This document shows positions 42,566 through 63,793 of a stretch of DNA of 64,000 bases, piece by piece (position 1 is the first letter of the stretch; every line of letters starts with the position of its first letter). Under the pieces are notes generated by a model. It had not been told where the DNA came from. It saw nothing but the letters and a program-made list of their open reading frames with translations, and did not search any database. Source of the stretch: Candidatus Aminicenantes bacterium UBA647 (GTDB taxonomy: Bacteria > Acidobacteriota > Aminicenantia > UBA2199); contig DBOL01000025.1 in NCBI GenBank assembly GCA_002299555.1, forward strand, positions 817-64,816, in the 5' to 3' direction. Position numbers and translations under genes: made by a program.

Positions 42566-42614
42566 GGGTTCCCTCTGATAAAATTATACCACAGGGCTTC
42601 AATTTTAACATTCT

Positions 42615-43478: not shown

Positions 43479-43531
43479 GAGATCTCCTCCGAGAATTAAA
43501 TAAATATCCCGGAAAAATCTCTCAAATAAAA

Positions 43532-44830: not shown

Positions 44831-44856
44831 AATGCCCCCGGTAATTCAGAAAAAAA

Positions 44857-46960: not shown

Positions 46961-47246
46961 CAATAAACTCCAATTCATTCAATTTTTTCATTACATCACC
47001 TGCATCAATCCCAGGCTTAAGCACAATATGAGAAAGGGGATTGAGTATCTTACCAATATTTATTCTGACCCAAATCCTTTCATGAAAAAAGTAGGCTATC
47101 AATTTTATGACCATATCAAGTGCACCAATTTCAAGTGCAACAGTAATTTCTCCTGTAAACATGTATGCAATGCTGAAAGTAATAGAAGTGGCAATTACCC
47201 TCCAGCTGATTGCTTTTGCAAGGCTTCTTGTGTTAGTTTCTCTCAT
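46947..47246 (-). CDS. DUF2061-domain membrane protein
   Basis: RSLAKAISWRVIATSITF....TGE......IG..D...K...YF.HERIW matches my memory of DUF2061. I prefer ATG 47246 to TTG 47300. Confidence 0.55.
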   Translation of the reverse strand: MRETNTRSLAKAISWRVIATSITFSIAYMFTGEITVALEIGALDMVIKLIAYFFHERIWVRINIGKILNPLSHIVLKPGIDAGDVMKKLNELEFIDEKK

Positions 47247-48555: not shown

Positions 48556-50706
48556 CTACCTCCATGTATAAGGAGATAAGTTACCGCCAAGATCTCCTAT
48601 AGAATCAACCAGTAACTGAGCAACATATCTGGCATTATGAATATATCCGTGAGGTTCTTTCTTTGACAGCTGAAAGTTATAGGCAGCTTTCAAAAGGTTC
48701 GCAGAAAATCTGTATCCATTTGAATATGATGCCTCTCCACTATCCACAATACCGTTATTGTTAAGATCTTTGAAGAAATACGGATAGGTATGAGAGTCAT
48801 AAACTAGTGGTGCTTTCGACTGACTTCCAACTCTTTGCATTTGCGCATACAGGCTGTCTTCAAGTCCTATGATCTCGTATTTCATTGCTTCAGTTGTATT
48901 CCCGTCTCCATCATAATCGGGAATATTTGCAGGCCTTATTCCACTGAACTTGAACTTGGACGGATCTGCACCCGGATTCGGCTGGGCAATATCCTGTCCG
49001 TGACAATCGACACAATCAGCCTGGTTGGGTTTCTGAACATTATGACCTGTATTAGGTGATTTACCTTTTGTACCCATATGACACTCGATACAAGTTACAA
49101 ATTTGTTGTCATGGTTCGGGTACATCTGGCGTCCTGCATATACTTTCCCCGGATATTCATACCCACCCTGAACCTCGGTACCGAATAGTACAGCAGCTGT
49201 CGGGAAATAGTGGATATTTGTAAATGAATAATTTCCGGTTCCACCGGCTATCTTGCTGTCAACCGAAGCTTTTGAAGCGCGTCCCTGGTGACAGGCCATA
49301 CATAAGTTACTTGCGTCTCCCAAACTGACAACATCCCCTGATGGGAATTTCACGTCTGCCAGCTGCAGCAATGCGGGAGGGCCGGTATGACATGTAGTGC
49401 AAAGCATACCATTGGCGATCGGTTCAGGATCTTCATTGGTTCCGTCAGCAACATATTTAGCAAGTCCTGTCGCGCTATGACATCTTGCACAACTTGATTG
49501 AACTTCACCGTCTCCATCCCAATGTCTCCAGGCTTCCTGTGAACCGGCAAAATGACCTTCATCATTTCTGGTCATTTTTGACATATCAACTCCTCCAGTC
49601 ACAGAATTCATGTCAGCAATAGAATCATACATAAGTTGGATAAGGTATTTGCCTCCGTGAGCAAAAGCCCCCGGATCTTTTTGAGAAGTCTGGTAGTTAT
49701 ACGCAGCTTTTGCCAATCTTGGTGTAAATTTCTTATAACTATTTGCATACACAGCTTCACCCTCATCAATAACACCATCATTATTTGTATCAGTGAAAAA
49801 ATATGGATATGTATGTGATTCATAACCGATAGTTGTTCCAACTACATTTCTGGAGTATACCAGCATCCCGTTAAAGAGGGCATCCTGAAGGCCCTTCAGT
49901 TCATAATAGATCCCTTCAGTTGTATTCCCGTCACCGTCATAATCGGTAAAAGAACCGAAATACCTGATGTTGTGGAGATCCTCTTTACTCTCAATCCCGC
50001 TATGGCATGTATCACATTGTTCAATTTTGATCTCCAATGAATGGGGATCGTGACAATCAGTACAAGAGTTGTATCCGGTTACATGACCGAATTTCCCGTC
50101 ATATGTCTGCCCTGCATATTCATAACCGCCTTTGGCAAGAGTACCGTAAAGGATAGCTCCAGCCGGGAAATAATGGATATTTGAGAACCTGATAGATGAA
50201 GAGGGTGTATCCAATGCTTTGCCGGCAAGTCCTGCCATGACTGAAGGACCTGAAGATCTTCCCTGGTGACAATTCATGCAAATACCTTCATTTCCAAGAG
50301 GTTCATATGTTCCATCTTCATTCATCTCCCCTTTCACTTCGATACCTGAAGGAAATGTCACACCGGCAAAAACCTTCGGAGTCCCATTCTCAACATTAGT
50401 GTGACAGGTTTCGCAGGTAAAGGCTCCCGGTTCATGTCCATTCGCAACAGCACCGGTATTAGTAAATTCTTCGAATCCACCTGCACTGTGACATTTTGCA
50501 CAGCTGGATGGTACAACTGCCGGTTCATCCTCATCCCAATGGACAAATGCTTCCGACGTTGAATCATTATGGCCTGAATCGGCAAATAATGAATCCTGAA
50601 CAGTTTCGAACATAGCTTTATCCATATTACAGGACTGCAGAACAAACAATCCTGTTATAAAGACAAAACAGATTCCGATTATTGATAAATTTTTTCTTTT
50701 ATTCAT
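48556..50706 (-). CDS. Decaheme c-type cytochrome lipoprotein with internal 5+5 duplication (functional analogue of MtrC/OmcA-type surface cytochromes)
   Basis: Ten CXXCH motifs: CAKCH, CETCH, CMNCH, CTDCH, CDTCH, then CARCH, CTTCH, CMACH, CIECH, CVDCH. Lipobox-like LQSC after the signal peptide. GGAGG lies before ATG 50706; the ORF-track extension to 50805 would overlap the upstream gene. Confidence 0.85.
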   Translation of the reverse strand: MNKRKNLSIIGICFVFITGLFVLQSCNMDKAMFETVQDSLFADSGHNDSTSEAFVHWDEDEPAVVPSSCAKCHSAGGFEEFTNTGAVANGHEPGAFTCETCHTNVENGTPKVFAGVTFPSGIEVKGEMNEDGTYEPLGNEGICMNCHQGRSSGPSVMAGLAGKALDTPSSSIRFSNIHYFPAGAILYGTLAKGGYEYAGQTYDGKFGHVTGYNSCTDCHDPHSLEIKIEQCDTCHSGIESKEDLHNIRYFGSFTDYDGDGNTTEGIYYELKGLQDALFNGMLVYSRNVVGTTIGYESHTYPYFFTDTNNDGVIDEGEAVYANSYKKFTPRLAKAAYNYQTSQKDPGAFAHGGKYLIQLMYDSIADMNSVTGGVDMSKMTRNDEGHFAGSQEAWRHWDGDGEVQSSCARCHSATGLAKYVADGTNEDPEPIANGMLCTTCHTGPPALLQLADVKFPSGDVVSLGDASNLCMACHQGRASKASVDSKIAGGTGNYSFTNIHYFPTAAVLFGTEVQGGYEYPGKVYAGRQMYPNHDNKFVTCIECHMGTKGKSPNTGHNVQKPNQADCVDCHGQDIAQPNPGADPSKFKFSGIRPANIPDYDGDGNTTEAMKYEIIGLEDSLYAQMQRVGSQSKAPLVYDSHTYPYFFKDLNNNGIVDSGEASYSNGYRFSANLLKAAYNFQLSKKEPHGYIHNARYVAQLLVDSIGDLGGNLSPYTWR

Positions 50707-50719
50707 CGTTTTTCCTCCG

Positions 50720-52582
50720 TTATTTCCAACTGTAACCAAAGGAAATTTCAAATATATTGGCCTTGTAATCATTATAGCCAAAATCATTTTCCTTAAAATC
50801 AACATATCTGTAATTCAACTGACCGATAAAACCTTTTTCACAAAAATACTTGAAGAAGAGTTTAAAGTTAGTTCTTGTTAATTCCCATGATCCGTTGTTC
50901 TTGTAGTAGTTTAGATAAGCTCCGAGACCAGTCTTATCACTTAGTTTTGAGTAGACATAAAGGTCGAAAAGGTTTGAAGTCCCTTCGAAGAGTATATCCC
51001 AGACATAGGTCCCCTCGCCTCCGCTCCATGATGGCGGATAATAGATTGACCTGTCCCCTTTTCTGGTAACATCGATCAGAGAATATCCGGCTGAGAAATG
51101 AAGTTTTTTCTTGTAAATTCCAAGTCTGAGGTTCAGTTGATTCTTATCCGATGTCCACATCTCACCATTTTGATCACTTTCCGACTTATTGAACAAATAT
51201 GAACCACTGAAGTAAAGATTCTTGTTCTTGTATTTGGCAGTAAGCCTGAATCTGTGAAAATCAGTAGGTGAGATAAGAGTTAACGGATTATCATAAGTCC
51301 CATATTGATAATCTGCTGTTACTCTGAATTTTTTATTAAGCCTCAAGTTCAAATTTCCGAATATTCCGGTTTTGGATGTGGGTTCATTTACATCTTCGAT
51401 AACAATTGCATCTTCCACATCTCTCTGCTCCATTCTGTATCCGATAGTGAATCCGAATTTAGTGTTTGGTTGATACTGAAGCCCTGCTTCAACTCCTCCA
51501 GTTTCATATTTAAGATCCATTGAAGTTTTCTCCCCATCAATGGTCATAGATCCGGTCTGGTCAAAATTATTATAAAAAGTAGTTCCCACCAGAGCCATCT
51601 TATCATTCAGGAAGTAGGTAAAATCGAGATCATAGACCTGAGATTTTCTTGAGAAATCGCCATCTCCAGTATAGTCATATGAAAAACCTGCACCAACATA
51701 ATCGATACCCATTGCACTTTCATCATATGTGAACTCTGTATCCTGGTTCATGATCATAAAGCTGCCTTTCAGGAGAAGCCTTTTAATTGGATTAAATGTG
51801 AATTTTGCAGTGTGCGTAATGCCTTTCATATCATACGGCATATCAAGATGGAAATAATTAAGAGCTGTCGGATATCTGGCGAAATCACCACCGTCAGCAT
51901 ATCCGGGCAGGAACATGCTTGTTGCATTCTCAAAATCAGTAAATTTTTCTTCGATCACAAATGCAAAGCTCTTTCCGCTATAATCAAACCCGAGAGTTAC
52001 TTCAGTTGACATCTCATCTATTGGTTTTTCAAACTCAAACTCAACTCTTCCGATATCAAGTGTATTAACGCTCGATCCTTTCTTTGTGTAGCTGTTAAAA
52101 TCTATATATGCATGAGCACTTTTTCCCAGCCATACTTTGAAAAGGCCTGAATCGTTTATCCGGTCAAATGCATAAGTGTGAAAATCATGTCCTTCAAGAT
52201 GGTCATTATAAAAATATTCTGATTTTCTTCTGTTAAACTTAAACTTGTACTTCCCGTTTTTCACAATATCGAGACCCATACTTTCAAATGGGTCGCCGCC
52301 AAAATTGTGAATATAGACATTCATGTAATCAAAATATTTGTTCATTTTCCCGGCGGGGGCGAAATGAATATTGAAATCGAACAATCTGACCCCATCACCA
52401 AGGTTAATATCCTCTTTGTATTTTGATTCAACTCCGCTTACATCAACATACCTGTACCCTACCAGGAATTTTCCGTAAAACTCATCCTCACCTTGTTCTC
52501 CGGCAGAAAGGGATATTGATGACACAAATCCACAGAACAGGATAACCATTAAAATTGTTAAAAATGATTTATTTATTTTCAT
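50720..52582 (-). CDS. Large outer-membrane beta-barrel, MtrB/PioB-like position in a porin-cytochrome module
   Basis: Signal peptide and 620 aa of alternating aromatic/Gly/Asn/Asp-rich strand-like sequence with no Cys-rich or catalytic motif. It sits between two decaheme genes with 10 and 13 nt gaps. Confidence 0.6.
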   Translation of the reverse strand: MKINKSFLTILMVILFCGFVSSISLSAGEQGEDEFYGKFLVGYRYVDVSGVESKYKEDINLGDGVRLFDFNIHFAPAGKMNKYFDYMNVYIHNFGGDPFESMGLDIVKNGKYKFKFNRRKSEYFYNDHLEGHDFHTYAFDRINDSGLFKVWLGKSAHAYIDFNSYTKKGSSVNTLDIGRVEFEFEKPIDEMSTEVTLGFDYSGKSFAFVIEEKFTDFENATSMFLPGYADGGDFARYPTALNYFHLDMPYDMKGITHTAKFTFNPIKRLLLKGSFMIMNQDTEFTYDESAMGIDYVGAGFSYDYTGDGDFSRKSQVYDLDFTYFLNDKMALVGTTFYNNFDQTGSMTIDGEKTSMDLKYETGGVEAGLQYQPNTKFGFTIGYRMEQRDVEDAIVIEDVNEPTSKTGIFGNLNLRLNKKFRVTADYQYGTYDNPLTLISPTDFHRFRLTAKYKNKNLYFSGSYLFNKSESDQNGEMWTSDKNQLNLRLGIYKKKLHFSAGYSLIDVTRKGDRSIYYPPSWSGGEGTYVWDILFEGTSNLFDLYVYSKLSDKTGLGAYLNYYKNNGSWELTRTNFKLFFKYFCEKGFIGQLNYRYVDFKENDFGYNDYKANIFEISFGYSWK

Positions 52583-52592
52583 GATTCTGCTC

Positions 52593-53402
52593 CTATTTCA
52601 AAAATAATTTATCCAGGTTGGAACCATGGATGGATGAATGGCAATTAGCACAATTTGTATCATTAGCAAGGAATCTCAAATGCCAGTCCGGTGCAACTGA
52701 ATGACAGCTGAAGCATAATTCCCTTACACTCTGATGTTTAAGCATATGCCTGTTCGGTGACCCGTGGACATCATGACAAGCTGTACAGCCTTCAACGCTG
52801 GATGCTTCATGTTCATGCATGAAAGGGCCGCCTTTATCACGGTGACATTTCAAACATGATTCCTGCTTAAAACCACCGAGTCTCTGACGTGCCGCACTCT
52901 CATGAGGATTATGGCATGAAGTACACTCAAGGATCCCTTCTGCAAGGCGGTGTTTTTCATTCAGCATGAATTCCGTGGCAACATCCTGATGACAGGATGT
53001 ACAAAGTTTTGTGTTAAGTTTTGCCATTGAATTCACTTTTTTATGAACTCCATGACACTTGGTACAATCTATACCTGCTTTTGAATGTTCACCATTCATA
53101 AAACCTCCAACAACCGTTTTATGACAGGACAAACATTGTTTGGATTTCTGAAGTGCAGTCTCATTTTTGAATGAGAATATATTCCCGGACTCAGCATTAT
53201 CCAGATGCTTTGCAGCATTTCCATGACAGTCGATACATTTTGCGCTGGAAATACCATGAGCTGTTCCGATAAACTTCACGGAAACTTCATCATGGCACTC
53301 AGCACAAACATTTCCGGCACCCTCTTCTCCGAAAATATCAACCGAAAGGAACACTGTCAGACAGAACGTCATTAACAATACTCCGAAGATTCGTTTATTC
53401 AA
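52593..53402 (-). CDS. Periplasmic decaheme c-type cytochrome (MtrA/DmsE-like size and heme density)
   Basis: Ten CXXCH motifs in 269 aa: CAECH, CIDCH, CLSCH, CTKCH, CTSCH, CTSCH, CLKCH, CTACH, CFSCH and CANCH. It has a signal peptide but no lipobox. The start is TTG, with AGGAGG 8 nt upstream. Confidence 0.85.
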   Translation of the reverse strand: MNKRIFGVLLMTFCLTVFLSVDIFGEEGAGNVCAECHDEVSVKFIGTAHGISSAKCIDCHGNAAKHLDNAESGNIFSFKNETALQKSKQCLSCHKTVVGGFMNGEHSKAGIDCTKCHGVHKKVNSMAKLNTKLCTSCHQDVATEFMLNEKHRLAEGILECTSCHNPHESAARQRLGGFKQESCLKCHRDKGGPFMHEHEASSVEGCTACHDVHGSPNRHMLKHQSVRELCFSCHSVAPDWHLRFLANDTNCANCHSSIHGSNLDKLFLK

Positions 53403-53471
53403 TTTTCCTACCTCCTAATATTTATTTTGTTAATCTTTAACTTTATAGTTAAAGTCTTAACAATTAAAAGA

Positions 53472-53487
53472 AGCATTAAACTTGCCA
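53472..53487 (-). promoter_or_regulatory. Candidate sigma-54 (-24/-12) promoter: TGGCAAG-N4-ATGCT
   Basis: The minus strand reads TGGCAAGTTTAATGCTT. The invariant GG and GC lie at the consensus spacing of TGGCACG-N4-TTGCW, with 2 mismatches. It is about 70-85 nt upstream of the decaheme start codon. Confidence 0.4.
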
Positions 53488-53560
53488 CGCCTTGTTAATG
53501 TAACTGGTTTTGTTTTATTTGAATTATAGGGATTCTTCAATACTGCAACAATTCATCAGT

Positions 53561-53595
53561 GTGTTCAAAACCGAACACATGTTCAATTTTGAACA
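53561..53595. promoter_or_regulatory. Two tandem inverted repeats TGTTC-N6-GAACA (TGT-N10-ACA type), a candidate enhancer-binding-protein UAS
   Basis: GTGTTC-AAAACC-GAACAC at 53561-53578 and TGTTCAA-TT-TTGAACA at 53580-53595. Their centres are 18 bp apart and lie about 80-105 bp upstream of the candidate -24 element. Confidence 0.4.
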
Positions 53596-53616
53596 ACCAC
53601 TATGCCAATAAAGTAT

Positions 53617-54561
53617 TTACTTATTTCTCCGATAGGTCCTTAATAACACTCTGTAACTTCGTTTAAATATTTTATTGCTCAGCTCTATTTTCCCATTACT
53701 TTCAAGGATCTCCGCAGCTTTGTAAATTGCAGGGAAGAAAGATGGTTCTATAAGAGAAAATCTTGAAAGGTTTTTAATGTTTTCCGGTGAAGGATCAGTT
53801 ATTGATCTTCCTAAATAGAGACCTAATTTCAATCTTTTTGAATCCTTTGCTTTTAAAGCCTCTGTAAAAAAAAATTCTGACTCCATTATTTTATCCTGCA
53901 TAATGAGAGCATATCCATAACCGAGTCCGGCTTCCTCATTTTCACTATCCTTTTCTACAGCTTTTTTGTATATATTCTCTGCAAGTTGATAATTTCCGTC
54001 TATTATCAGAGTAAAAGCCTGCTTTGTTATCCGGTTGAGTTTCCTTTGCTCAAGTTTTTTATCAAACTCTTTGTATACATCACCCGGAGCCTCTCCTTTT
54101 CCAAGAGCCAGTAAATGATTTTTAAAGAATAGACTCAAATTTGATCTGTAACTGACGATCAATGAGTTCAGAATTCCTGCCTCGTTAATAAAGAGCACCG
54201 TGGGCATAACTATGATCCCGAGATTACCATAAATTTTTCTTTCAGGATCATTGAGATTTTTCTTCTCTCCTTTAATTTTGTTAAAAAGGATCATCACCCT
54301 TTTGTCAGTTTCATTATTAACATCAACAAGGAGAAAATAAAGATTTTTTCTTGAATTATATACTTTGCTGAATTGTCTGAAGAATGCAATGGATCTGGGC
54401 TCATCCGATTTCAAATACAGCAAAACCGACTTCTCTTTTCCCTCGAGAAACTTCAACTCATTGACCAGAGGGATATTATCGCCGGTCTTTATCTCCCGCA
54501 AGCCTTCAACATCTGCAGGAAACATATAAAAAGTTAAAAGCAGTAAAACTATTGCTTTCAT
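53617..54561 (-). CDS. Secreted protein with a Cys-less thioredoxin-like N-domain and TPR-like C-domain (function unknown)
   Basis: Signal peptide. A TlpA/redoxin-like strand-helix pattern (SVLLYLKSDEPRS..FF......LYFLLVDVN....MPTVLFI) lacks the CXXC. The C-terminus is a helical repeat region. An ATGA overlap links it to the upstream cytochrome gene. Confidence 0.4.
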   Translation of the reverse strand: MKAIVLLLLTFYMFPADVEGLREIKTGDNIPLVNELKFLEGKEKSVLLYLKSDEPRSIAFFRQFSKVYNSRKNLYFLLVDVNNETDKRVMILFNKIKGEKKNLNDPERKIYGNLGIIVMPTVLFINEAGILNSLIVSYRSNLSLFFKNHLLALGKGEAPGDVYKEFDKKLEQRKLNRITKQAFTLIIDGNYQLAENIYKKAVEKDSENEEAGLGYGYALIMQDKIMESEFFFTEALKAKDSKRLKLGLYLGRSITDPSPENIKNLSRFSLIEPSFFPAIYKAAEILESNGKIELSNKIFKRSYRVLLRTYRRNK

Positions 54562-55844
54562 AACCCCTTAACCTTTTTATTTCTGTCATATGAATATTCT
54601 TTGTGACATCCTGGTGCACAACTTCCACCGGTTTTTGTCTTTTCAAATCCAACCGGCAGGCTCCATTTCCCAAATGGTGTCTCTTTTCTAATGTGTTTGG
54701 GCAGATTACTGGCATGGATCTCATGACATGCCCGGCAAGTCCTCCCCTTTGTCATGTTCACATGAACATAATGGAGATTCCAGTCACCATCTCTAAAATT
54801 TGTAAGAGCTACGGTTCTTTCAACCTTTGCCAGTTTGCTCTCATGACATTCGAAGCAGGAAGCATATTTTTTCTCTTCATAAGCAGTATAGAATTCTTTC
54901 GGGAATTCATCCTTAAGGATCATATAAAAATCAGAACCATGAGGATCATGACACCCGGTACAATTACCATCCTTAATAGGACCGTGTTTGAATTTGTTTC
55001 TGTTCACGATCTTAAAAATATTGTAATCCTTACCATCCGTTCCAATTAATTTTTTGTCATGGCAATTAAGGCAAAGTTTAAGTGGAGAAATTTTGAGGTT
55101 ATTATCATAAAGAGAGCCGTGTGCATCATGGCAGTTGTAGCATTTCTTATTCTCATTTACTACAGCATGTTTGAACTTTACTGAATCAACTTTATCTGTT
55201 ATTTTTTTGTGACATTCACTACAGAGTTTTTCACGATCTGCAATTAATTGAAATTCATGGCCGGAGGAGTGAGGGCTGTGACATTTTGAACAACCCTCTT
55301 TCATAGGAGAGTGCATTTTCTGATCCGCACCTGAAAAATCCTTATCAGAATGACACCTTGTACATATTACTTTCATAGGCTCGACAAGGAGAAATTTATT
55401 ATTTGAACTGTGGGACTCATGACATAACGAGCAATTTCCCGAAGCGTTGGGTCCATGAACAAATTTTTTGTTCATCGGGTCTTCATCATGGCAGTCAAAG
55501 CATACCTTGTCGATCCTCTTATGCTTTAAAAAGGCTTTGTAATCTCCGCCATGCGAAAAATGACAATCTGTACAATCGCCTGAGGAGACAGCATCATGCA
55601 CATTTTTTTTGTCGGTCTGATCGTCATGACACTCATTACAATGTTCATTAATATTTGCGATCTTTGTAAATTTGTGATCGCCTGTCTTTTCATGACAGGT
55701 AAGGCAATCATCATCAACAGGTGCATGGATCACTTTGTAATCTTTCATATCCTTATGACACTCTGAAGTCACACAACTTTTTTCTGCACCGCCTGCAAAA
55801 GAAAAAAGAAATAAAACAGCTAATAATGCATAAAATAATTTCAT
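54558..55844 (-). CDS. Periplasmic multiheme c-type cytochrome, 13 CXXCH plus CX4CH and CX3CH variants (c7/c3-type repeat architecture)
   Basis: Canonical motifs: CLTCH, CNECH, CTDCH, CFDCH, CSLCH, CTRCH, CSKCH, CSECH, CYNCH, CLNCH, CTGCH, CFECH and CRACH. Variants: CVTSECH and CAPGCH. Signal peptide present, with GGAGG upstream. Confidence 0.85.
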   Translation of the reverse strand: MKLFYALLAVLFLFSFAGGAEKSCVTSECHKDMKDYKVIHAPVDDDCLTCHEKTGDHKFTKIANINEHCNECHDDQTDKKNVHDAVSSGDCTDCHFSHGGDYKAFLKHKRIDKVCFDCHDEDPMNKKFVHGPNASGNCSLCHESHSSNNKFLLVEPMKVICTRCHSDKDFSGADQKMHSPMKEGCSKCHSPHSSGHEFQLIADREKLCSECHKKITDKVDSVKFKHAVVNENKKCYNCHDAHGSLYDNNLKISPLKLCLNCHDKKLIGTDGKDYNIFKIVNRNKFKHGPIKDGNCTGCHDPHGSDFYMILKDEFPKEFYTAYEEKKYASCFECHESKLAKVERTVALTNFRDGDWNLHYVHVNMTKGRTCRACHEIHASNLPKHIRKETPFGKWSLPVGFEKTKTGGSCAPGCHKEYSYDRNKKVKGL

Positions 55845-55855
55845 CCTAATACCTC

Positions 55856-57538
55856 CTATTTTTCATAATCTTCCGGAGAATGATCTTCTCCATGACATTG
55901 CAGATAGCAATATCCTTTATTTCCTACGACTTCAAATTTTAACTCACCATCTAAATTCGGAAAAACAACACTCGTATCAAAATTAATTAATCCGATATTT
56001 TGCCTTGACCCATGAGGATCATGACATACTGAACATGGGGTGCTCTCTTCATTAATATGTTTCTTGTGATATTTAAAGGTTGTCAGATTTTCACTCATTA
56101 TGATCTCCGGCCTGTGACACTTCCAGCAAAGATCATAATTTGATTGTTGATAAGGCATCCCGGATGCAATCAAATACCTTCTTTCCAATAAGTTCTCATG
56201 AATTGAACCATGAGGCCCTTCAGGGCCACTACCACCTGCTTTCATTGAATTATTATTGTTATGACAATCGGTACAATTCATTATCGACGCAACATTCCAT
56301 GCAGGTCGCAAAGAGGGGACACCTGAAATTCCTCCTTTTTGTACAACACTATGAAAACTCTTATTGGAGGGGAGAAAGGCTTCCCTCATATTAGAATTCT
56401 GATATTGTCTGCTGACATCAAAACTATTGTATTTATCCTGCCCGTGACATTTCAAGCAAACCTCAAATTCAAATTGTGATTCTTCAATAATTGATCCGGT
56501 AATATTCATCCCTGATACGCCCGCCAACCGCCCATTAACCTGAGGGGCAACTGATTTTAATGAATTTACTCTGTGAGGATTATGGCAGTCAACACACTGA
56601 ACGTGAATATTGTTTAATAATATATTCTCTTTTGCATCGTGAATATTGCTGTATAAAGCAGAATCAACTGAATGAGATACATTTTTTCTCAACTCAGATC
56701 TAATATCAATACCGGTATTACCATTGTGACAAGCTAAACACGATTCCGAATCAGGGCCCTTTAGTAATAAATGGTGACTCCCCTCTGCATTATGACTTTG
56801 ATGACAATTCATACAGGAATTCTCAGTTACAGACTTATTGTTCGTATGAAACCACGGGTTCTTTCCAACTCCACTCCACGTCTTAGCCGAAATATCGTGA
56901 GTGGAAAGTCCATTATATCCTATAGGATCATGACATGATTTACACAAGGCTCCACCTGAAATATCTTTAACCAGAAATTTCGGGAAATTATCATGGTGAG
57001 GATCGTGACAGGTTGTACATTGGATCTTCCCATTCTTATCATATCCCACTTTATCATCAAGAGAAGGGTGCTTATACTCCGGAGAGGATGAAACAACGTT
57101 ATTACTACTAAAAGATATGGGATGATCATCTGAGATATTTTCTCCCAGGTTAGCAGAATGACCCCTTGGGAATCTTCCTGCATCTGTATTAGTTACAGAC
57201 ATATTTTCTGATCGGTTCAGCACTCTCCCCAATGCTATTGTCCCATCGTGACATGAAAGGCAAAGTTTCGAAGCTCCGTCAGGTTGTCCCAGAACAGAGT
57301 ACAATGTGGAGCTGCTGTAAAGTGTGTATTGAACCGAAGAACTTTCACGATTCCACAGAGGGAAATTCTTACCTTTTGTGTGAGAAGTGTGGCAAAAAAT
57401 ACAAATTTGACTGTCACTTGTGGCTTTGATATTGCCAGCACTGGAACTTGACAAATTGTGCTTTGAATTCTTTATACTTCTCGATGAAGCAAAAAATCCT
57501 AAAATAAAAATTAATGAAAAAATCGCAAGTCTCTTCAT
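55856..57538 (-). CDS. Multiheme c-type cytochrome, 11 CXXCH plus one CX3CH (doubled-CXXCH / Geobacter-type family)
   Basis: Canonical motifs: CIFCH, CLSCH, CTTCH, CKSCH, CMNCH, CLACH, CVDCH, CLKCH, CTDCH, CWKCH and CSVCH. Variant: CYLQCH. The N-terminal SKHNLS....CIFCHTSH...PLWN pattern is present, with a signal peptide. Confidence 0.85.
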   Translation of the reverse strand: MKRLAIFSLIFILGFFASSRSIKNSKHNLSSSSAGNIKATSDSQICIFCHTSHTKGKNFPLWNRESSSVQYTLYSSSTLYSVLGQPDGASKLCLSCHDGTIALGRVLNRSENMSVTNTDAGRFPRGHSANLGENISDDHPISFSSNNVVSSSPEYKHPSLDDKVGYDKNGKIQCTTCHDPHHDNFPKFLVKDISGGALCKSCHDPIGYNGLSTHDISAKTWSGVGKNPWFHTNNKSVTENSCMNCHQSHNAEGSHHLLLKGPDSESCLACHNGNTGIDIRSELRKNVSHSVDSALYSNIHDAKENILLNNIHVQCVDCHNPHRVNSLKSVAPQVNGRLAGVSGMNITGSIIEESQFEFEVCLKCHGQDKYNSFDVSRQYQNSNMREAFLPSNKSFHSVVQKGGISGVPSLRPAWNVASIMNCTDCHNNNNSMKAGGSGPEGPHGSIHENLLERRYLIASGMPYQQSNYDLCWKCHRPEIIMSENLTTFKYHKKHINEESTPCSVCHDPHGSRQNIGLINFDTSVVFPNLDGELKFEVVGNKGYCYLQCHGEDHSPEDYEK

Positions 57539-58470
57539 TCCGTCTCCTGAATTACCTTGAAAATTTGTATCCTGCTGTTGTAAGTATCTAAAACAAAGAT
57601 TCTTCCCGCTTTATCTAATAGTATCCCGCTTGGCATCCAAAAATTTAAGTCTCCACTTCCGGGGCCACCAAAATAATGCAAAAACTGTCCGGAACTATCA
57701 AAAATCTGGATATTGTCAAACATTACATCAGTTACATATATCCTCTTTTCGGAATCAACAGCTATACCTTTAGGCTTCGAAAATTCGCCCCCACTTCGCC
57801 CGTTTCTACCAAATGTGGCGACAAACTCTCCACTATGATCAAATATCTGAACTCTGAAATTTAATGCATCAGTGATATATATGCTATCTGTATCAACAAC
57901 AATATGTGTAGGATAATTGAACTTCCCGATTTCACTTCCACGATCTCCAAAATGGAGAATCTCTTTACCTTCCAGATCATAAATTACAACCTGATGATTT
58001 TGTGTGTCAGTACAAAATAATTTTCCAAGATAAAAATATATCCCGGTTATCCTTCTGTTCTGGTCACTTATTAAAATTCTTTTATATTTCAGATCCTTTC
58101 CAAATTCAATGACAGACCTGTAATATGAGTCCGAAACATAAAATCCCCCTGAATTCCCCCTGGCACAACTTACAGGTGAAATAAAATTCTTCCCATTGAA
58201 AGTTGAAATGTTTTTTTTCCTGTCTCCTTTCTCATTGATGATAACGATACGACCATTTGACTGATCTGTGACACAATACAGCCCTTTATCTATTTCCACA
58301 ATTGAGACCGGTTTGATCAGGAGGTCAGGTTTTTTCCCGAATAAAACCTCTACAATATTTTTTTTCTTCTTACCTTTTAGATCAATTATTTTTTCAAGCT
58401 TAACGGTCTCACCGGAAGCAAAAGTGCTGATCAGTAAAATTGAAAGTATTAATGAAATTAGATTTTTCAA
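57535..58470 (-). CDS. NHL-repeat six-bladed beta-propeller protein (periplasmic)
   Basis: Signal peptide. Repeated ~45 aa units have F..P.GI..D..G.IYV.D..N.RIQ.F (for example YPTHIVVDTDSIYITDALNFRVQIFD and PKGIAVDSEKRIYVTDVMFDNIQIFD). The start is TTG, overlapping the upstream stop (TTGA). Confidence 0.8.
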   Translation of the reverse strand: MKNLISLILSILLISTFASGETVKLEKIIDLKGKKKKNIVEVLFGKKPDLLIKPVSIVEIDKGLYCVTDQSNGRIVIINEKGDRKKNISTFNGKNFISPVSCARGNSGGFYVSDSYYRSVIEFGKDLKYKRILISDQNRRITGIYFYLGKLFCTDTQNHQVVIYDLEGKEILHFGDRGSEIGKFNYPTHIVVDTDSIYITDALNFRVQIFDHSGEFVATFGRNGRSGGEFSKPKGIAVDSEKRIYVTDVMFDNIQIFDSSGQFLHYFGGPGSGDLNFWMPSGILLDKAGRIFVLDTYNSRIQIFKVIQETE

Positions 58471-60425
58471 AAAAGCCTCCTTATAATTATACTGAAATAT
58501 GTGTGCTTCTTATTCGCTAAATAGTAATCATTCAGGAAATGTTCAAAGAACAGATCGATCACCACTTTTCTGATCGTCCAATTGAATTTGATTATAAGGC
58601 TTTCTCTTTCTGCCAGATATACCGAGGTTTTATTACTTAAATATCTGTATATGGCATTGAACCTGACTCCGTGCCTTGGATTAAAAGTCAGATCTCCCAT
58701 ATACAATTTATAATCTCCTCTCAGATCACCATTATCATAATGTGTTATTTTTGAGATAAAGTTACCTGAAAATTTAAAATATTTCAAAAATCCAAATCCT
58801 GAATTGAGCCTGAAGTATCTTGAACGATATCCTGAAAAAGATGAACTATACCTGTCAATCATGTATTCACAATTGACCAGCCTTGCATCTACGCGAAATC
58901 CATAGTTTTCACTTTCAAAATCTTCGTACGGTTGAACAAGATATTCAGAACTAAGAAACATATCATTATCATACTTCCTGTAAAACAGATGGAAATATTT
59001 CAAAAAATATAAAGAAGCACTGATCTGAGTGTAATCATTCCTCAGCTTATGATCCGGGAAGGTCTGATAATGATAATAGATAGCCACCCTCTCTCCGGAC
59101 GACATTGCGCCTCCGGGGATCCTGAGGATATTAATAACATTGTCAACAATAGTAATTTCATAATCGATGTATTCAATGTATATTCTGGTCAGATCCACAT
59201 TGGTTATTCGGATACTGTCAACTTGAATTCCCGGAATTGATAATAAGATCGTATCTGAAAAAGTAAACTTCCTGAATTCACTTACTTCAGAGATATCACT
59301 TTTTGAAATAAAATCACGATTTTCAATGCTTTTCCCCAAATTAAAATTTATTGCTCCATTTTTGATCTTTTTTGTGTAATTAATCGTCAATTGACCTTTA
59401 TAAGACTTGATATCCTGGAAAGAAGAATTCTCAAGTCTTCCTGACAATGAAGCTGTTGTTGTGAGACTGTCAAAAAGTTTATGTCTTAACGAAGATACAA
59501 GTTCCCCTTTCTGATAGGAATTATTATTTGACAGATCATTTGAATATGAAAATAAATTAAGTGAGAACAGGCCCTTCCGGATGAAGTTACTGGTATTAAA
59601 TGTGAAACCTAAGGTTTCCAGTGAAAGATCTTCTGTCATTTTCCGGTATGACACATTTGATATAACAAAGTTCCTCTTACTATTCCCGTAAAAATAGGAA
59701 AAATCATTCCGGATATCAAATGATTGAAAATTCAGACCATAAACCTTTTCTGAAAAATCTTTCCAATTTGATCTGAGCGTTAACTTACCGTTCTTAATAC
59801 GTGCAAGATCGGAATAAAATTCTATATTTTTGCTTTCTTCATTTCTCTCTTCATAAGATATCGATTCCGATAAACTTTTACTTTTGTATGCTTTCAACCT
59901 GAAAGGTAATAATTTTGTCCCGTTGCTGATCGCGAATCCAATACTTTCATTCAACAGATATTTCCTCTCAAAATAGTTTCGGTCCGATGTACTGAAACCT
60001 TTCATTGCAAAAATATCAAAATGTATTTTCTTCTTCTTAAATAAATTCAGGACAATATTGTAAGTGTTGTTGACAGAATTGTTAATGTCAGAATCTGAAA
60101 ACAATGTCCTTTTTGCTCTATAACCTACCAGACTAAAATTTATATTAAATGTCAACAGATTGGGATGGTAAATGCTTCCACTGGAATTTATCTGAATTCC
60201 ACCTTCAAAATACTTTCGAAAAATATCACTGCTAACAAGACCGTCAAATGAATCAATATCGCTGGTTGACTCATATTTAAGGATAAATGCTCCCGAAAAA
60301 TCGGATAGTTTAAATAAAGAAATTTCCTGTGCTGACAAATAATTAAAAGGAATAAACAACAAATTCAATACAACAATAACTTTCAAAAGGGATTTATTCC
60401 GGATAGCCTTAAAAAATTTTCTCAT
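58467..60425 (-). CDS. Large outer-membrane beta-barrel candidate of the second cytochrome module
   Basis: Signal peptide (..NYLSAQE). 652 aa of Tyr/Phe/Asn/Ser-rich alternating sequence ending ..IIIRRLF, with a C-terminal Phe typical of OMPs. ATGA overlaps occur on both sides. Confidence 0.55.
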   Translation of the reverse strand: MRKFFKAIRNKSLLKVIVVLNLLFIPFNYLSAQEISLFKLSDFSGAFILKYESTSDIDSFDGLVSSDIFRKYFEGGIQINSSGSIYHPNLLTFNINFSLVGYRAKRTLFSDSDINNSVNNTYNIVLNLFKKKKIHFDIFAMKGFSTSDRNYFERKYLLNESIGFAISNGTKLLPFRLKAYKSKSLSESISYEERNEESKNIEFYSDLARIKNGKLTLRSNWKDFSEKVYGLNFQSFDIRNDFSYFYGNSKRNFVISNVSYRKMTEDLSLETLGFTFNTSNFIRKGLFSLNLFSYSNDLSNNNSYQKGELVSSLRHKLFDSLTTTASLSGRLENSSFQDIKSYKGQLTINYTKKIKNGAINFNLGKSIENRDFISKSDISEVSEFRKFTFSDTILLSIPGIQVDSIRITNVDLTRIYIEYIDYEITIVDNVINILRIPGGAMSSGERVAIYYHYQTFPDHKLRNDYTQISASLYFLKYFHLFYRKYDNDMFLSSEYLVQPYEDFESENYGFRVDARLVNCEYMIDRYSSSFSGYRSRYFRLNSGFGFLKYFKFSGNFISKITHYDNGDLRGDYKLYMGDLTFNPRHGVRFNAIYRYLSNKTSVYLAERESLIIKFNWTIRKVVIDLFFEHFLNDYYLANKKHTYFSIIIRRLF

Positions 60426-60973
60426 ATCTTTTTCAGGAAAAATTTGTTGTCAGAGATATGGGGATCATGACATTCAAGGCAATTATCTCCTTTACAGGGG
60501 AGTGACGCTCCTGTTATTGGAGTTCTGTGGCATAAAACACATAGTTTCTTCCCATCTGCCAGCAGGAGTTTTCTGTTCTCGGATTGATGAGGGTTATGAC
60601 ATGTATTACATGCCCTTACTGCAACCGGCCCATGAACATATGGCCCTTCGAATTTTTCCTCCTTATGACAGATAAAACAGAGCTCTTTTTTCCCTGCTCT
60701 CAGAAAATTTGAAACATCTCTGGTATGACATTTGGTACACTCTTTTGTTTTATAATCGGGATGAGTTGATATGAATCGAACCTTAACGACTTTACGCCGA
60801 TCCTGCCCGGCAATATTTTTATCCTCAGTTTTAATTACTTGCCCGACCTCTGGCCCGGGGACACCATCAAAAAAAACCGAAAGAACTTTTCTATGCTTTT
60901 GAACAACGCAGGAACTCAATAAAATGAGGTTGATTAAAAAAAATACTACTAAAACAGAATTATTTTTCTTCAT
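60422..60973 (-). CDS. Pentaheme c-type cytochrome lipoprotein
   Basis: Motifs CTKCH, CFICH, CNTCH, CVLCH and CLECH. The signal peptide has lipobox-like LLSSC when started at MKKNNS (60973); the ORF-track extension to 61012 is unlikely. Confidence 0.8.
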   Translation of the reverse strand: MKKNNSVLVVFFLINLILLSSCVVQKHRKVLSVFFDGVPGPEVGQVIKTEDKNIAGQDRRKVVKVRFISTHPDYKTKECTKCHTRDVSNFLRAGKKELCFICHKEEKFEGPYVHGPVAVRACNTCHNPHQSENRKLLLADGKKLCVLCHRTPITGASLPCKGDNCLECHDPHISDNKFFLKKI

Positions 60974-62066
60974 ATTCTCCAAATGCATATACATTAACTT
61001 TATTTTTCCCAAAATTAGAAGTTATATACAATAAATATTCGGCTTTAAAATCCGGAGAAATATATTTGGAAAACAAAGATAAATTTTCATAATCAATTGT
61101 AATCGCCGCCGGCATATAAAGGTTATACCTCTCCCTTCCGGGCCCAAGCATGTGAAGGAGTAATTTCTTTTCTTTATTAAATATCTGTACATTCTGAAAT
61201 GCAGAATCGATTACATATATCCGCCCCTGTTTGTCAATATCGATCCCCTTCGCTCTGACAAAATTTCCCGGGCGATCACCGATACGCCCCAGACTGTCAA
61301 TATATTTTCCATTGATATCAAAGATAGATACTCTGTTATTTGTTGAGTCAACAATAAAGATTTTGTTCTCAAAAATTTTTATACTTGTCGGATGATACAA
61401 TTGCCCTTCCATCCTCCCCTTTTCACCGATCCGCCTTAAAATTTCCCCTGTCCTGATATCCAACACAAGAATCTGATGGGCTTTTACATCACTGACAAAC
61501 AGTTCATCTCCTCTAATATCAATATCAGATGGAGAAAACTCCCTCTTTTCACCATATACTTTCAGCAGATCACCATCAATATTATAAGCAAGAACCTGCT
61601 TTCTTAACATGTCTGCAACATATATAATGTTATTTTCTTTATCAATTGTTATATTCACGGGCTTTAAAAGTCTGCCCTGACCTTTATATCCCAAAAATCC
61701 AAGTTTCCTTTTTACCAGATCCAGAGTAACAACAACGTTGCTTCTGGAATCACATACATATATAACTCCTCTGTATGAATCAACACCATGTGCCTTTTTT
61801 ATTACAAAATCTTTCTTTGTCTCAGAACCGGCAACAAATCTAAAGAATTTACTTTTCTTTTTCTCAATATCACTTGAAGTAGTGAAAGTTGTCAGATATT
61901 GATATCTGGGTTTTGCCGGCAAAGGCGGAAAAAAAACATATTTTTTTTTGTTATCAGGGGAAGTTTTCAGTGTATTATACTTTGAGCAGAAAGGGAATAG
62001 CGTCACCAATAACATAATCATTACAAGTGATAGTGTTTTCCCGATTCTCATGTCCAAGGGATGCAT
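60960..62066 (-). CDS. NHL-repeat beta-propeller lipoprotein
   Basis: Lipobox LFPFC. NHL units include AHGVDSYRGVIYVCDSRSN.VV, PVNITIDKENNIIYVADMLRKQVLAY, HPTSIKIFENKIFIVDSTNNRVSIFD and AKGIDIDKQGRIYVIDSAFQNVQIFN. AGGAG lies 6 nt before ATG 62066. Confidence 0.8.
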   Translation of the reverse strand: MHPLDMRIGKTLSLVMIMLLVTLFPFCSKYNTLKTSPDNKKKYVFFPPLPAKPRYQYLTTFTTSSDIEKKKSKFFRFVAGSETKKDFVIKKAHGVDSYRGVIYVCDSRSNVVVTLDLVKRKLGFLGYKGQGRLLKPVNITIDKENNIIYVADMLRKQVLAYNIDGDLLKVYGEKREFSPSDIDIRGDELFVSDVKAHQILVLDIRTGEILRRIGEKGRMEGQLYHPTSIKIFENKIFIVDSTNNRVSIFDINGKYIDSLGRIGDRPGNFVRAKGIDIDKQGRIYVIDSAFQNVQIFNKEKKLLLHMLGPGRERYNLYMPAAITIDYENLSLFSKYISPDFKAEYLLYITSNFGKNKVNVYAFGEYEEK

Positions 62067-62131
62067 TTCTCTCTCCTTCAATGAAACTATAAAACAATAT
62101 TACCAAAAGGAATTATAAAATTAAAGAATCC

Positions 62132-62167
62132 TAAAAAAAAAGCCCCGATCGTAACCGAGGCTTTTTT
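62132..62167 (-). terminator. Rho-independent terminator after the tetraheme gene
   Basis: The imperfect GC-rich hairpin AGCCCCGATCGTAACCGAGGCT at 62141-62162 is flanked by A9 on one side and T6 on the other. Read on the minus strand, the hairpin is followed by a T9 run. Confidence 0.55.
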
Positions 62168-62197
62168 GTTACTTTTTAACTTAATACAACAATAAAA

Positions 62198-62839
62198 TTA
62201 TTTGTTATGACAGGTCAGACAAAGAGCACTCTGAACATTGCTCTTTCTGAGAAGATTTGCTACATTTGCAGTATTGTGAACATCATGACAAGACGAGCAC
62301 TCAAGAAGGTTATTACCGGCACCCTCTAGCATATCATCATCGATATTCGCTCCCAATCCGGACGCAGTCAAAGTCGGATCATGAAGTTCGGTATCCAGAG
62401 CAACTAAAGCTACATCGTAAGCAATGGAGATCGGATGATCATTTGACAAATCCAGACCTACATTAGCAGCACCTGTTAAAGGTACCGTTCCAACTGTACC
62501 GCCAAAGCTGTCCAGTGCAGTAACGCCATCATGACATGATAAACACAGCAATGAAACCCCGGCAGGATCCCCTACTGTTGCATTCATATCATATCCTGCT
62601 CCATAATTTACGAATGTTTGAGTTGATTCTGTATGATTCCATAGTGGAGCATCTGTAATTGTTGCGTCACCATTATGAGGAGTATGACATGGCTGACATA
62701 ACTCGCCTCCAGTCCCACTATTCCATGCATCTGCATTAAATCCGGTTCCGTCGCTAAAATCATGAGCTGAACCACCAATCAGAGCATAAAGACCTGCTGC
62801 AACCGTGATCGAAAGTAAAATAAATAATACTTTTTTCAT
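62198..62839 (-). CDS. Tetraheme c-type cytochrome (doubled-CXXCH family), secreted
   Basis: Motifs CQPCH, CLSCH, CSSCH and CLTCH. The pattern SAHDF....CQPCHTPHN....APLWN is present. There is a signal peptide from MKKVLF (62839), with AGGAG upstream. Confidence 0.85.
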   Translation of the reverse strand: MKKVLFILLSITVAAGLYALIGGSAHDFSDGTGFNADAWNSGTGGELCQPCHTPHNGDATITDAPLWNHTESTQTFVNYGAGYDMNATVGDPAGVSLLCLSCHDGVTALDSFGGTVGTVPLTGAANVGLDLSNDHPISIAYDVALVALDTELHDPTLTASGLGANIDDDMLEGAGNNLLECSSCHDVHNTANVANLLRKSNVQSALCLTCHNK

Positions 62840-62892
62840 TATAAACTCCTTTAAAATTAATTTAATATGACATTTCCATGACATACAAAGAT

Positions 62893-62921
62893 AATATAGA
62901 TTCAAATCGTTTATATGTCAA
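62893..62921 (-). promoter_or_regulatory. Sigma-70-type promoter for the tetraheme gene: TTGACA-N17-TATATT
   Basis: On the minus strand, TTGACA lies at 62921-62916, followed by a 17 nt spacer and TATATT at 62898-62893. This is about 55 nt upstream of the start codon. Confidence 0.5.
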
Positions 62922-63046: not shown

Positions 63047-63793
63047 GTGAATATTTTTAAAAATAAAGGAAGTATTGTGACAGCAATGCTGATGATAGGA
63101 TTCCTGGCCTTCTCCGGGTCGGGAACCGAACTCTCCGCAGAAAATAAAATTGAACCCAAGATCCATAACGGGAAACTTCTGCAGATGTTCAAGTCGGGAG
63201 GATACACCTATCTGGAATATGAATCAGATGGTAAGAAGTTCTGGGCTGCATCAAAAATGGTCGTTGCAAACATCGGAAATATCATTGAATTCAACAATCC
63301 TCTGGAAATGAAGGACTTTTATTCAAAATCATTGAAAAGAAAGTTCGAGCTCATTTATTTTGCAGGAATGGTGAGAGCTGTCGGCAAACCGGGAGAACTT
63401 TCCATGAAATCAATGCAGAGCATGACGGGACACAAAAAAATGGGCACCGAAAAAAAAGTTATTGTTGTCAATGCCGGCTCTGTAAAAAAAGCAGACAGCG
63501 GGTACACAATAGCAGAGTGCTTCTCGCAAAAGGATGCATTAAAAGGAAAAACGATACTGATACGGGCAATAGTAGTGAAATTCTCCCCGAAAATAAAAGG
63601 GAGAAATTGGGTCCATATAAGGGACGGAAGCGGGATTGCAGGCACGAACGATATAACGTTTACAACAAAGGAAACTTTAACTCCGGGAGATCTTATTCTG
63701 GTTAAGGGGATTCTCTTACTTAACAAGGATATTGGCTCAGGATATTTATTCCCGGTATTTTTGGAAGATCCGGAGGTTGTAAAGGAGAAATAA
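63047..63793 (+). CDS. Secreted hypothetical protein with two OB-fold-like modules
   Basis: Signal peptide. The patterns SGGYTYLEYESDGKKFWAA and KGK.I.IRA.VVKF.P.I.GRNWVHI.DGSG recall a family I remember from metal-reducing and anaerobic bacteria. The start is GTG, with AAGGGAG upstream. Confidence 0.5.
   Translation: MNIFKNKGSIVTAMLMIGFLAFSGSGTELSAENKIEPKIHNGKLLQMFKSGGYTYLEYESDGKKFWAASKMVVANIGNIIEFNNPLEMKDFYSKSLKRKFELIYFAGMVRAVGKPGELSMKSMQSMTGHKKMGTEKKVIVVNAGSVKKADSGYTIAECFSQKDALKGKTILIRAIVVKFSPKIKGRNWVHIRDGSGIAGTNDITFTTKETLTPGDLILVKGILLLNKDIGSGYLFPVFLEDPEVVKEK

Follow-up and report, generated by a model that had tools for sequence, protein, structure and literature searches.

A multiheme cytochrome island in Candidatus Aminicenantes that probably joins an OmcE-type filament cassette to an Mtr-like conduit

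Organization of the island

Aminicenantes are anaerobic bacteria, abundant and uncultured in sediments and the subsurface, that are usually described as fermenters. The window analysed here is a stretch of 64,000 nucleotides from Candidatus Aminicenantes bacterium UBA647 (GenBank assembly GCA_002299555.1, contig DBOL01000025.1, positions 817 to 64,816 of the forward strand). Its most conspicuous element is an island of multiheme cytochrome genes at positions 48556-62905. A preliminary description of the window placed 11 open reading frames (ORFs) in this interval, all on the minus strand, and their coordinates and strand have been reproduced. The ORFs are separated by short gaps or overlap by 4 bp, and are numbered here from ORF1 at the low-coordinate end to ORF11. 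The flanking genes are housekeeping genes (purL, purB, glycosyltransferases, a helicase, and an MgsA-type ATPase).

Six of the ORFs carry c-type heme motifs. A scripted count agrees exactly with the earlier manual one: 53 CXXCH motifs (10 in ORF1, 10 in ORF3, 13 in ORF5, 11 in ORF6, 5 in ORF9, and 4 in ORF11) and three variants, namely CX4CH at residue 24 of ORF5, CX3CH at residue 409 of ORF5, and CX3CH at residue 544 of ORF6. A fourth variant (CX4CH), at residue 7 of the ORF11 frame, precedes the start that this gene probably uses. The same script found no CXXCK in any of the 11 island ORFs. The island frames hold 53 CXXCH in 4,785 amino acids, as compared with 1 in 20,417 amino acids in all other stop-free segments of at least 100 amino acids in the window, an enrichment far beyond chance.

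All 11 island products begin with a hydrophobic, signal-like segment, and lipobox-like cysteines occur in ORF1 (VLQSC) and ORF9 (LLSSC). Three gene starts probably need correction: ORF1 probably begins at M34 (50706), yielding a lipoprotein signal that ends in VLQSC; ORF11 probably begins at M23 (62839; MKKVLF...), although the mechanical ORF extends to 62905; and the likely start of ORF9 is near 60982. Rfam models detect no RNA family in the island, and only three tRNAs, distant from it, in the window. The view that the island is a coherent multiheme-cytochrome locus, serving to move electrons through the outer membrane and past it, is supported. It is probably a composite of two evolutionarily separable units (Table 1): unit A, a cassette running from ORF11 to ORF6 and extended by ORF5 and ORF4, and unit B, comprising ORF3, ORF2, and ORF1.

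Table 1. Genes and sequence features of the island and its upstream border, in descending order of position.
Feature	Positions	Strand	Basis
248-aa secreted protein, divergent to the island	63047..63793	+	homologs beside the cassette in Aminicenantes and Verrucomicrobia loci
Sigma-70-like promoter match, TTGACA-17-TATATT	62893..62921	-	11/12 positions match; best of the region; just 5' of the ORF11 M23 start
ORF11, OmcE-like tetraheme cytochrome, candidate filament (nanowire) subunit	62198..62839	-	full-length match to two solved filaments
Intrinsic terminator, GC-rich hairpin plus nine U	62133..62161	-	directly 3' of ORF11; folding z -2.7
ORF10, NHL six-bladed beta-propeller, signal sequence, non-canonical lipobox-like Cys (FPFC)	60960..62081	-	Pfam NHL and DUF5128
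ORF9, pentaheme lipoprotein (LLSSC lipobox), doubled-CXXCH units	60422..60982	-	Pfam; motif count
ORF8, predicted large outer-membrane beta-barrel, family rare and fast-evolving, candidate secretion/anchoring pore for the filament or ORF6	58467..60425	-	AlphaFold2 model; Foldseek
ORF7, second NHL beta-propeller, signal peptide, no lipobox	57535..58470	-	Pfam NHL, E 1e-24
ORF6, probable dodecaheme, first ~200 residues a complete OmcE-like domain	55856..57538	-	match to 7TFS; motif conservation
ORF5, 13 CXXCH and two variants, signal peptide, candidate periplasmic heme wire	54558..55844	-	six doubled-CXXCH units
ORF4, Cys-free periplasmic protein, C-terminal TPR repeats, N-terminal domain maybe thioredoxin/ResA-like	53617..54561	-	TPR_19
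15-bp perfect AU-rich hairpin	53558..53601	-	in the 214-bp ORF4-ORF3 spacer, at the module junction; z -2.9
ORF3, MtrA/DmsE-like periplasmic decaheme	52593..53402	-	TIGR03508, near-full coverage; best PDB match MtrA
ORF2, MtrB/PioB-like outer-membrane barrel	50720..52582	-	AlphaFold2 model; Foldseek match to MtrB
ORF1, surface decaheme lipoprotein, two tandem ~330-aa pentaheme modules	48556..50706	-	lipobox VLQSC; half-versus-half alignment

The OmcE-like subunit and its expression signals

ORF11 aligns over its full length with the OmcE proteins of Desulfuromonas soudanensis (9YUQ, E 6e-31) and Geobacter sulfurreducens (7TFS, E 4e-25), whose filaments have been solved by cryo-EM, and is 37% identical to the omcE product of the G. 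sulfurreducens locus (L032), which was located with the OmcE sequence rebuilt from the alignment. When both solved OmcE proteins, ORF11, the N-terminal domain of ORF6, and four homologs from other loci are aligned, the four CXXCH motifs, a PLWN motif, and four histidines outside the motifs are invariant, so that none of the eight heme-ligand histidines varies. No OmcS structure is among the PDB matches of ORF11 or ORF6.

The gene is bordered by a promoter-like site and an intrinsic terminator. Promoter-like sites in the region do not exceed the shuffled expectation, and the match 5' of ORF11 is therefore only suggestive. A generic terminator scan, likewise not above shuffled expectation, overlooked the terminator 3' of ORF11, which was revealed by folding. 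Equivalent hairpins with T-runs, unrelated in sequence, lie 3' of the OmcE-like gene in 8 related loci; true omcE of G. sulfurreducens, like that of two proteobacterial loci, is also followed by one. This is the layout expected of a major filament subunit that is made in excess over its assembly proteins, and it lends independent support to ORF11 as the structural subunit.

The ORF6 dodecaheme

Residues 9-204 of ORF6 match OmcE (7TFS) at E 1e-27. This N-terminal domain retains the OmcE ligand set (the eight ligand histidines) without change, and the mature N-terminus (SIKNSKHNLSS) is likewise the same. Because all 11 CXXCH motifs and a C-terminal CX3CH (CYLQCH, within 55856-55930) are invariant in 17 members of the ORF6 family from five or more phyla, ORF6 and its “undecaheme” relatives probably bind twelve hemes. 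The family is large (433 representatives at E<=1e-30, mostly full length) and is annotated merely as “cytochrome c3 family.” No counterpart of ORF6 occurs in the Geobacter-type omcE clusters that were compared.

The ORF8 barrel

ORF8 has no match in Pfam or NCBIfam, and its sequence profile has none among PDB sequences. A word-index search, which scored the 8000 candidates sharing the most words, returned at least 11 homolog clusters among 5.8 billion. The AlphaFold2 (AF2) model, built on a 10-sequence alignment, consists of long beta-hairpins throughout; its overall predicted local distance difference test (pLDDT) score is 69.6, with values above 80 for the C-terminal half. The top 50 Foldseek matches of this model are all big outer-membrane barrels: the FimD usher, MtrB, PapC, TonB-dependent transporters, and LptD. 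ORF8 ends in RRLF, and a similar basic-basic-x-F ending occurs at this position in almost all of 25 related loci (see below).

By class, but not by demonstrated orthology, ORF8 is very probably the large barrel of the cluster, as judged from the predicted fold. No sequence relationship to the barrel of the Geobacter omcE cluster was detected: tblastn was negative, as was hhalign both with a 10-sequence profile and with 24- versus 3-sequence profiles.

Relationship to known cytochrome clusters

The invariant minimal omcE cluster has been described as OmcE, two multiheme cytochromes, two beta-propeller lipoproteins, and a large barrel (Petersen et al. 2025, bioRxiv 10.1101/2025.10.22.684050). 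In the Geobacter locus the gene order is purHDE, ppcA, resB, ccsB, a 370-aa cytochrome with 9 hemes, a 330-aa cytochrome with 8 hemes, an NHL protein, omcE, a 752-aa protein assigned to no family, and glycosyltransferases. ORF11 and the N-terminal domain of ORF6 correspond to OmcE. ORF7 and ORF10 correspond to the NHL protein that adjoins omcE (31% identity, E 3e-34, and 28% identity, E 2e-31, respectively). ORF5 corresponds to the 370-aa cytochrome (36% identity, E 1e-56) and also has local similarity to MtrA, and the best Geobacter match of ORF9 is the 330-aa cytochrome (E 2e-19).

Because ORF11 matches both solved filaments and the ORF11-ORF6 series matches the omcE parts list, the cassette of unit A reads as an OmcE-type cytochrome-filament cassette and not as a second Mtr/Pcc unit. 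The preliminary description had taken both modules of the island to be of the porin-cytochrome type; that assignment holds for ORF3-ORF2-ORF1, discussed below, which fits the pattern of MtrA, MtrB, and a surface cytochrome, but is replaced by the filament cassette for the other module. The likeness to the Geobacter and Desulfuromonas clusters extends to the tetraheme subunit, which is homologous and has the same heme ligands, to the terminator that follows the subunit gene, to homologous propellers and multiheme cytochromes, and to a large barrel gene beside the subunit gene, a place that ORF8 fits by class. In contrast to these clusters, the window has a different gene order, a barrel of about 650 aa with no detectable similarity to the Geobacter barrel of about 750 aa, and an additional cytochrome (ORF6) that has 12 hemes and resembles OmcE in its N-terminal domain. 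It lacks adjacent resB/ccsB genes and the long glycosylation block, and the lineages that host cassettes of the window type lie outside the five phyla listed for the omcE cluster (bioRxiv 10.1101/2025.10.22.684050).

Just downstream of the island (38807-46978) the window encodes purL, purB, and GT2 and GT4 glycosyltransferases. The Desulfuromonadia omcE cluster also adjoins purine genes, often followed by GT2/GT4/GT39 genes that are linked to OmcE glycosylation; the resemblance may be a coincidence.

A second relative is uetABCDEFGHIJ, the uet (undecaheme electron transfer) cluster, found in Candidatus Tenderia electrophaga and in some Gallionella (bioRxiv 10.1101/2022.05.06.490989; PMC10734462). 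In Candidatus Tenderia it includes the tetraheme UetA, the barrel UetC, the NHL proteins UetH and UetI, and the undecaheme UetJ (bioRxiv 10.1101/2022.05.06.490989). By parts list, not by sequence, the window resembles it: a tetraheme cytochrome assigned to the cell exterior, a large barrel, a pair of NHL proteins, and a cytochrome with 11 CXXCH are encoded together, with a TPR protein close by. The peptidyl-prolyl isomerase UetB, the c7 trihemes UetD, UetE, and UetG, and the cupredoxin UetF are, however, absent from all 11 island ORFs. The comparison suggests that the uet and omcE clusters are versions of one machine; in the searched library no research paper was found that names Uet and OmcE together, and the sole co-mention there is in a 2025 review.

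The DFE_0448-0451 and DFE_0461-0465 clusters of Desulfovibrio ferrophilus also include NHL proteins as named parts (PMC5815863); the authors suggest that these propellers lend the complex the stability that barrel proteins give it in iron reducers. By description, these clusters share with the window multiheme cytochromes interleaved with NHL beta-propellers in a proposed outer-membrane electron-transfer complex; they differ in that no beta-barrel gene is listed in those papers, whereas the window has two barrels.

The omcS-companion (osc) cluster of G. sulfurreducens (Shen et al. 2025, as summarised in PMC13194489) contains OscEFG secretion factors, the folding factor OscH, and the morphology factor OscD, and has the same logic as the window: a filament cytochrome gene with paralogous cytochromes and dedicated assembly factors. 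The window differs in that its subunit is OmcE-like rather than OmcS-like and in that its island encodes no prolyl isomerase. Shen et al. are said to regard OscEFG as channel-like and OscD as propeller-like. No description of the omcE cluster was found in the eLife OmcZ paper or in a 2025 review.

NHL propellers were confirmed by Pfam in ORF7 and ORF10. They had first been thought foreign to characterised conduits and were the ground for calling the system novel; since propellers are named in the omcE, uet, and DFE clusters, that argument fails. The kind of system is already known, since the omcE and uet clusters were described in 2022-2025, and most of the gene set of the cassette is thus on record. 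What is new here is its occurrence in lineages beyond the five OmcE-cluster phyla, a different barrel family, the OmcE-like fusion domain of ORF6, and the joining to an Mtr-like module and a Cys-free TPR protein. To that extent (the TPR protein and the joining of both modules) the earlier view of an undescribed variant stands.

The Mtr-like conduit

ORF3 (269 aa, 10 CXXCH) covers profile positions 3-257 of 258 of the DmsE-family model TIGR03508, with a score of 169.3 bits that lies under the cut-off of 192.2. An exact look-up with the ORF3 sequence gave no match. Among PDB entries ORF3 is closest to MtrA, which forms chain A of 6R2Q, the Mtr complex (E 9e-24). The PDB sequence file names this chain “Cystathionine beta-synthase,” a misleading label that could hide MtrA matches.

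The identity of ORF2 rests on fold, because its sequence profile gave no match among PDB sequences and only the fold comparison was informative. The AF2 model, from an alignment of 39 homologs, has some 28 long strands (pLDDT 81; predicted template-modelling score, pTM, 0.73). Its top Foldseek match is MtrB (6R2Q_B, E 9e-16, template-modelling (TM) score 0.67), and every other barrel has a TM score of 0.45 or less. The family comprises more than 300 homolog clusters. PF11854 (MtrB_PioB) is found in 8 of the 39 family members, although not in ORF2 itself, and one homolog, in Aminicenantales, carries the NCBI name “MtrB/PioB family.” A protein 100% identical to ORF2 occurs in GCA_030626715.1 (P0012) and in run SRR1971621. 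ORF2 and ORF8 are thus both predicted to be barrels, in agreement with the preliminary description of the two large Cys-poor ORFs.

The two halves of ORF1 are 39% identical to each other (E 1e-68). ORF1 scores 24.5 bits against the OmcA/MtrC family model TIGR03507 (cut-off 209.3), has marginal similarity to domain II/IV of MtrC, and has no solved relative in the PDB. It is a tandem pentaheme duplication that would occupy the functional slot of MtrC from outside the OmcA/MtrC family.

Because ORF3 resembles MtrA, the ORF2 fold resembles MtrB, and ORF1 is a surface decaheme lipoprotein, unit B is predicted to be a genuine porin-cytochrome conduit of the Mtr/Mto kind. As in MtrCAB, MtoAB, and PioAB (6R2Q), an MtrA-like decaheme lies beside an MtrB-like barrel and is followed by a decaheme lipoprotein. 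Unit B differs from these conduits in its shorter ORF3, which falls under the DmsE-family cut-off, in the lack of a PF11854 match in ORF2, and in an ORF1 that does not belong to the OmcA/MtrC family.

Conservation across genomes

A survey in which one genome per species was scanned with the ORF8 alignment yielded 25 loci. Nearly all of the closest are labelled Candidatus Aminicenantes; more distant ones are labelled Omnitrophota, Thermodesulfobacteriota, Verrucomicrobia (several groups), and Neomarinimicrobiota. On every contig that reaches far enough, the order ORF11-10-9-8-7-6 (tetraheme, NHL, pentaheme, barrel, NHL, ORF6) is kept, and in all such loci a separate OmcE-like gene occurs alongside the OmcE-like N-terminal domain of the ORF6 homolog. 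ORF10 is collinear in all related loci. A metagenome-assembled genome (MAG) of the Gammaproteobacteria (L036) has the cassette of the window without the pentaheme ORF9. In that locus two further cytochromes and a membrane cytochrome b (Ni_hydr_CYTB; 9261-10190) come after the cassette; the last is a candidate inner-membrane partner of a kind that the island of the window does not encode.

Unit B is present in some Aminicenantes loci only. In one relative (L003) the counterparts of ORF11 through ORF5 are followed at once by the downstream flank seen in the window; the modules are thus separable, since this locus keeps unit A and the same flank without unit B. The AU-rich hairpin at the module junction could be a terminator remnant or a recombination scar.

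Among Aminicenantes MAGs (L005, L007, L008, and L010), the six cassette proteins (55856-62839) are far more divergent from those of the window than are both flanks. Identities are 30-41% for ORF8 and 50-67% for ORF6, as compared with 75-94% for the proteins of unit B, up to 94% for ORF5, and 68-82% for the 248-aa secreted protein. The pattern looks like that of a hypervariable surface-structure locus or of cassette replacement by recombination.

A model of electron transfer and its alternatives

In the proposed model, judged more likely than not, ORF11 would be transcribed from its own promoter and separated by the terminator from the accessory genes, and so made in excess. Outside the cell it would polymerise into a heme wire through the inter-subunit histidine-heme ligation of the OmcE type. 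ORF8 would serve as the outer-membrane pore that exports or anchors this wire, and ORF6, with an OmcE-like head and an eight-heme tail, would be the likely adaptor that couples filament to envelope. ORF9 (pentaheme) and ORF5 (13-15 hemes) may relay electrons across the periplasm, with the propellers ORF7 and ORF10 and the Cys-free ORF4 acting as putative assembly or scaffold factors. In unit B, ORF3 would be threaded into the barrel ORF2 and touch the surface decaheme ORF1, giving a second, short-range electron outlet.

A more specific and still doubtful proposal casts the ORF6 dodecaheme as the base, long sought, that initiates or anchors an OmcE-type nanowire. ORF6 and the first ORF11 subunit would co-polymerise by the same histidine-heme handshake, while the seven or eight further hemes of ORF6 would extend through the ORF8 barrel and meet the periplasmic cytochromes. 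In the operons that they examined, those who solved the D. soudanensis structure reported no candidate for an OmcE-like tip or initiator (bioRxiv 10.1101/2025.10.22.684050). If the proposal is true, such a base would account for the wiring of a cytochrome filament to the cell, and the cassette would be a second widespread architecture of nanowire machinery, found in six or more phylum-level groups (by MAG labels) and built on a barrel unrelated in sequence to that of Geobacter.

Several points weigh against the filament model. Homologs of OmcE are very numerous (1,346 clusters), and not all of them need polymerise; the cassette type is known from sequence alone, from which filament formation by ORF11 is inferred. 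The importance of cytochrome filaments in physiology is itself disputed, even in Geobacter (PMC11077965). The published omcE cluster has lipoprotein propellers, whereas ORF7 lacks a lipobox and that of ORF10 is non-canonical; the NHL counterparts in L036 carry canonical lipoboxes. The ORF8 model is of moderate confidence (pLDDT 69.6), with TM scores of 0.2-0.28 to solved barrels, and the hhalign probability between ORF8 and the Geobacter omcE-cluster barrel is 1% or less. Finally, the island encodes neither an inner-membrane quinol oxidoreductase nor cytochrome-maturation genes, which leaves a gap between the locus and metabolism.

The direction of electron flow is not readable from sequence. 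Flow outward to minerals, humics, or partner cells is favoured because Aminicenantes are anaerobes. The reverse, an uptake of electrons from Fe(II) minerals, metallic iron, cathodes, or a syntrophic partner, is compatible with the proposed architecture and is judged the less probable direction, at perhaps one chance in a few. The closest named analogues outside Geobacter (Uet in Tenderiales and the DFE clusters) have been implicated in uptake, and Mtr/Mto-type conduits are considered reversible. The window, however, holds no pointer to lithoautotrophy and no terminal oxidase, its flanks being devoted to purine synthesis, glycosyltransferases, and helicases, and Geobacter OmcE has been connected with the reduction of Fe(III) oxide and with transfer between species.

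It is rather unlikely that the cassette is a non-filamentous conduit after the Uet model, in which ORF8 would hold ORF6 (or ORF9 and ORF6), ORF11 would be a monomeric surface cytochrome, and the NHL proteins would merely stabilise the complex; such a reading comes close to that of the preliminary description. The parts list does fit the uet cluster, whose authors propose such a conduit, although they themselves allow polymerisation (bioRxiv 10.1101/2022.05.06.490989). ORF6, with its 12 invariant heme motifs, is long enough to span the membrane, and MtrB is among the best Foldseek matches of the ORF8 model. A monomeric role for ORF11 is nevertheless at odds with its retention of all the residues that build the OmcE heme chain, including the four non-CXXCH histidines, and with the terminator-isolated layout that it has in common with true omcE. 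The two readings are not fully exclusive, as a filament would still need a conduit.

That the cytochromes are catalytic multiheme enzymes of the NrfA, HAO, or octaheme-reductase type with accessory proteins is highly improbable and was rejected, none of them being a close homolog of such an enzyme: a marginal match of ORF1 to hydroxylamine oxidoreductase (E 0.008 over about 35 residues) and a sub-threshold match of ORF6 to Cytochrom_C552 (E 0.002) are local, all enzyme-family scores fall far under the curated cut-offs, CXXCK is absent, and the best PDB relatives are OmcE and MtrA.

Under the filament model, a complete OmcE-type cassette joined to an Mtr-like conduit would let Aminicenantes dump electrons on minerals or partners, or take them up, and such routes would affect models of iron, carbon, and methane cycling in sediments. 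To the nanowire field the window would offer a simpler six-gene unit, its order conserved across many lineages, with a candidate filament-to-cell adaptor in ORF6. The second barrel family, represented by ORF8, would be a useful contrast for the study of how cytochrome filaments are exported and anchored.

Accessory genes and other observations

ORF4 had been described as a Cys-less thioredoxin-like/TPR protein. The absence of cysteine and the TPR repeats are borne out, and phmmer returned TPR proteins only; the thioredoxin-like label fares less well. The N-terminal domain has no Pfam match even at E 10, and a five-sequence profile of it retrieved from the PDB thioredoxin-fold proteins only, all non-significant (best ResA, E 0.14). 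ORF4 occurs in Aminicenantes loci, with one weak partial match in a further locus (L013; 41 bits, 24% identity). Its candidate role is that of a chaperone in the maturation or assembly of cytochromes, and there is a hint that it may be a redox-dead chaperone that binds apocytochromes.

The 248-aa secreted protein encoded divergently to the island belongs to no Pfam or NCBIfam family. A response-regulator gene, recognised from its receiver-domain translation, begins 3' of it on the plus strand after 63.8 kb, and GerE-type response regulators occupy the equivalent position in two related loci (L001 and L003). The two genes may be a dedicated accessory and regulator pair.

Two observations concern the remainder of the window. 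Two paralogous genes for aromatic amino-acid ammonia-lyases (Lyase_aromatic, E 1e-162 and 1e-193) lie about 1 kb apart on the minus strand at 3808-5331 and 6419-7924. Also on the minus strand, at 10418-12775, is a gene for a 785-aa protein in which long N-terminal TPR arrays precede a C-terminal eukaryote-type Ser/Thr kinase domain.

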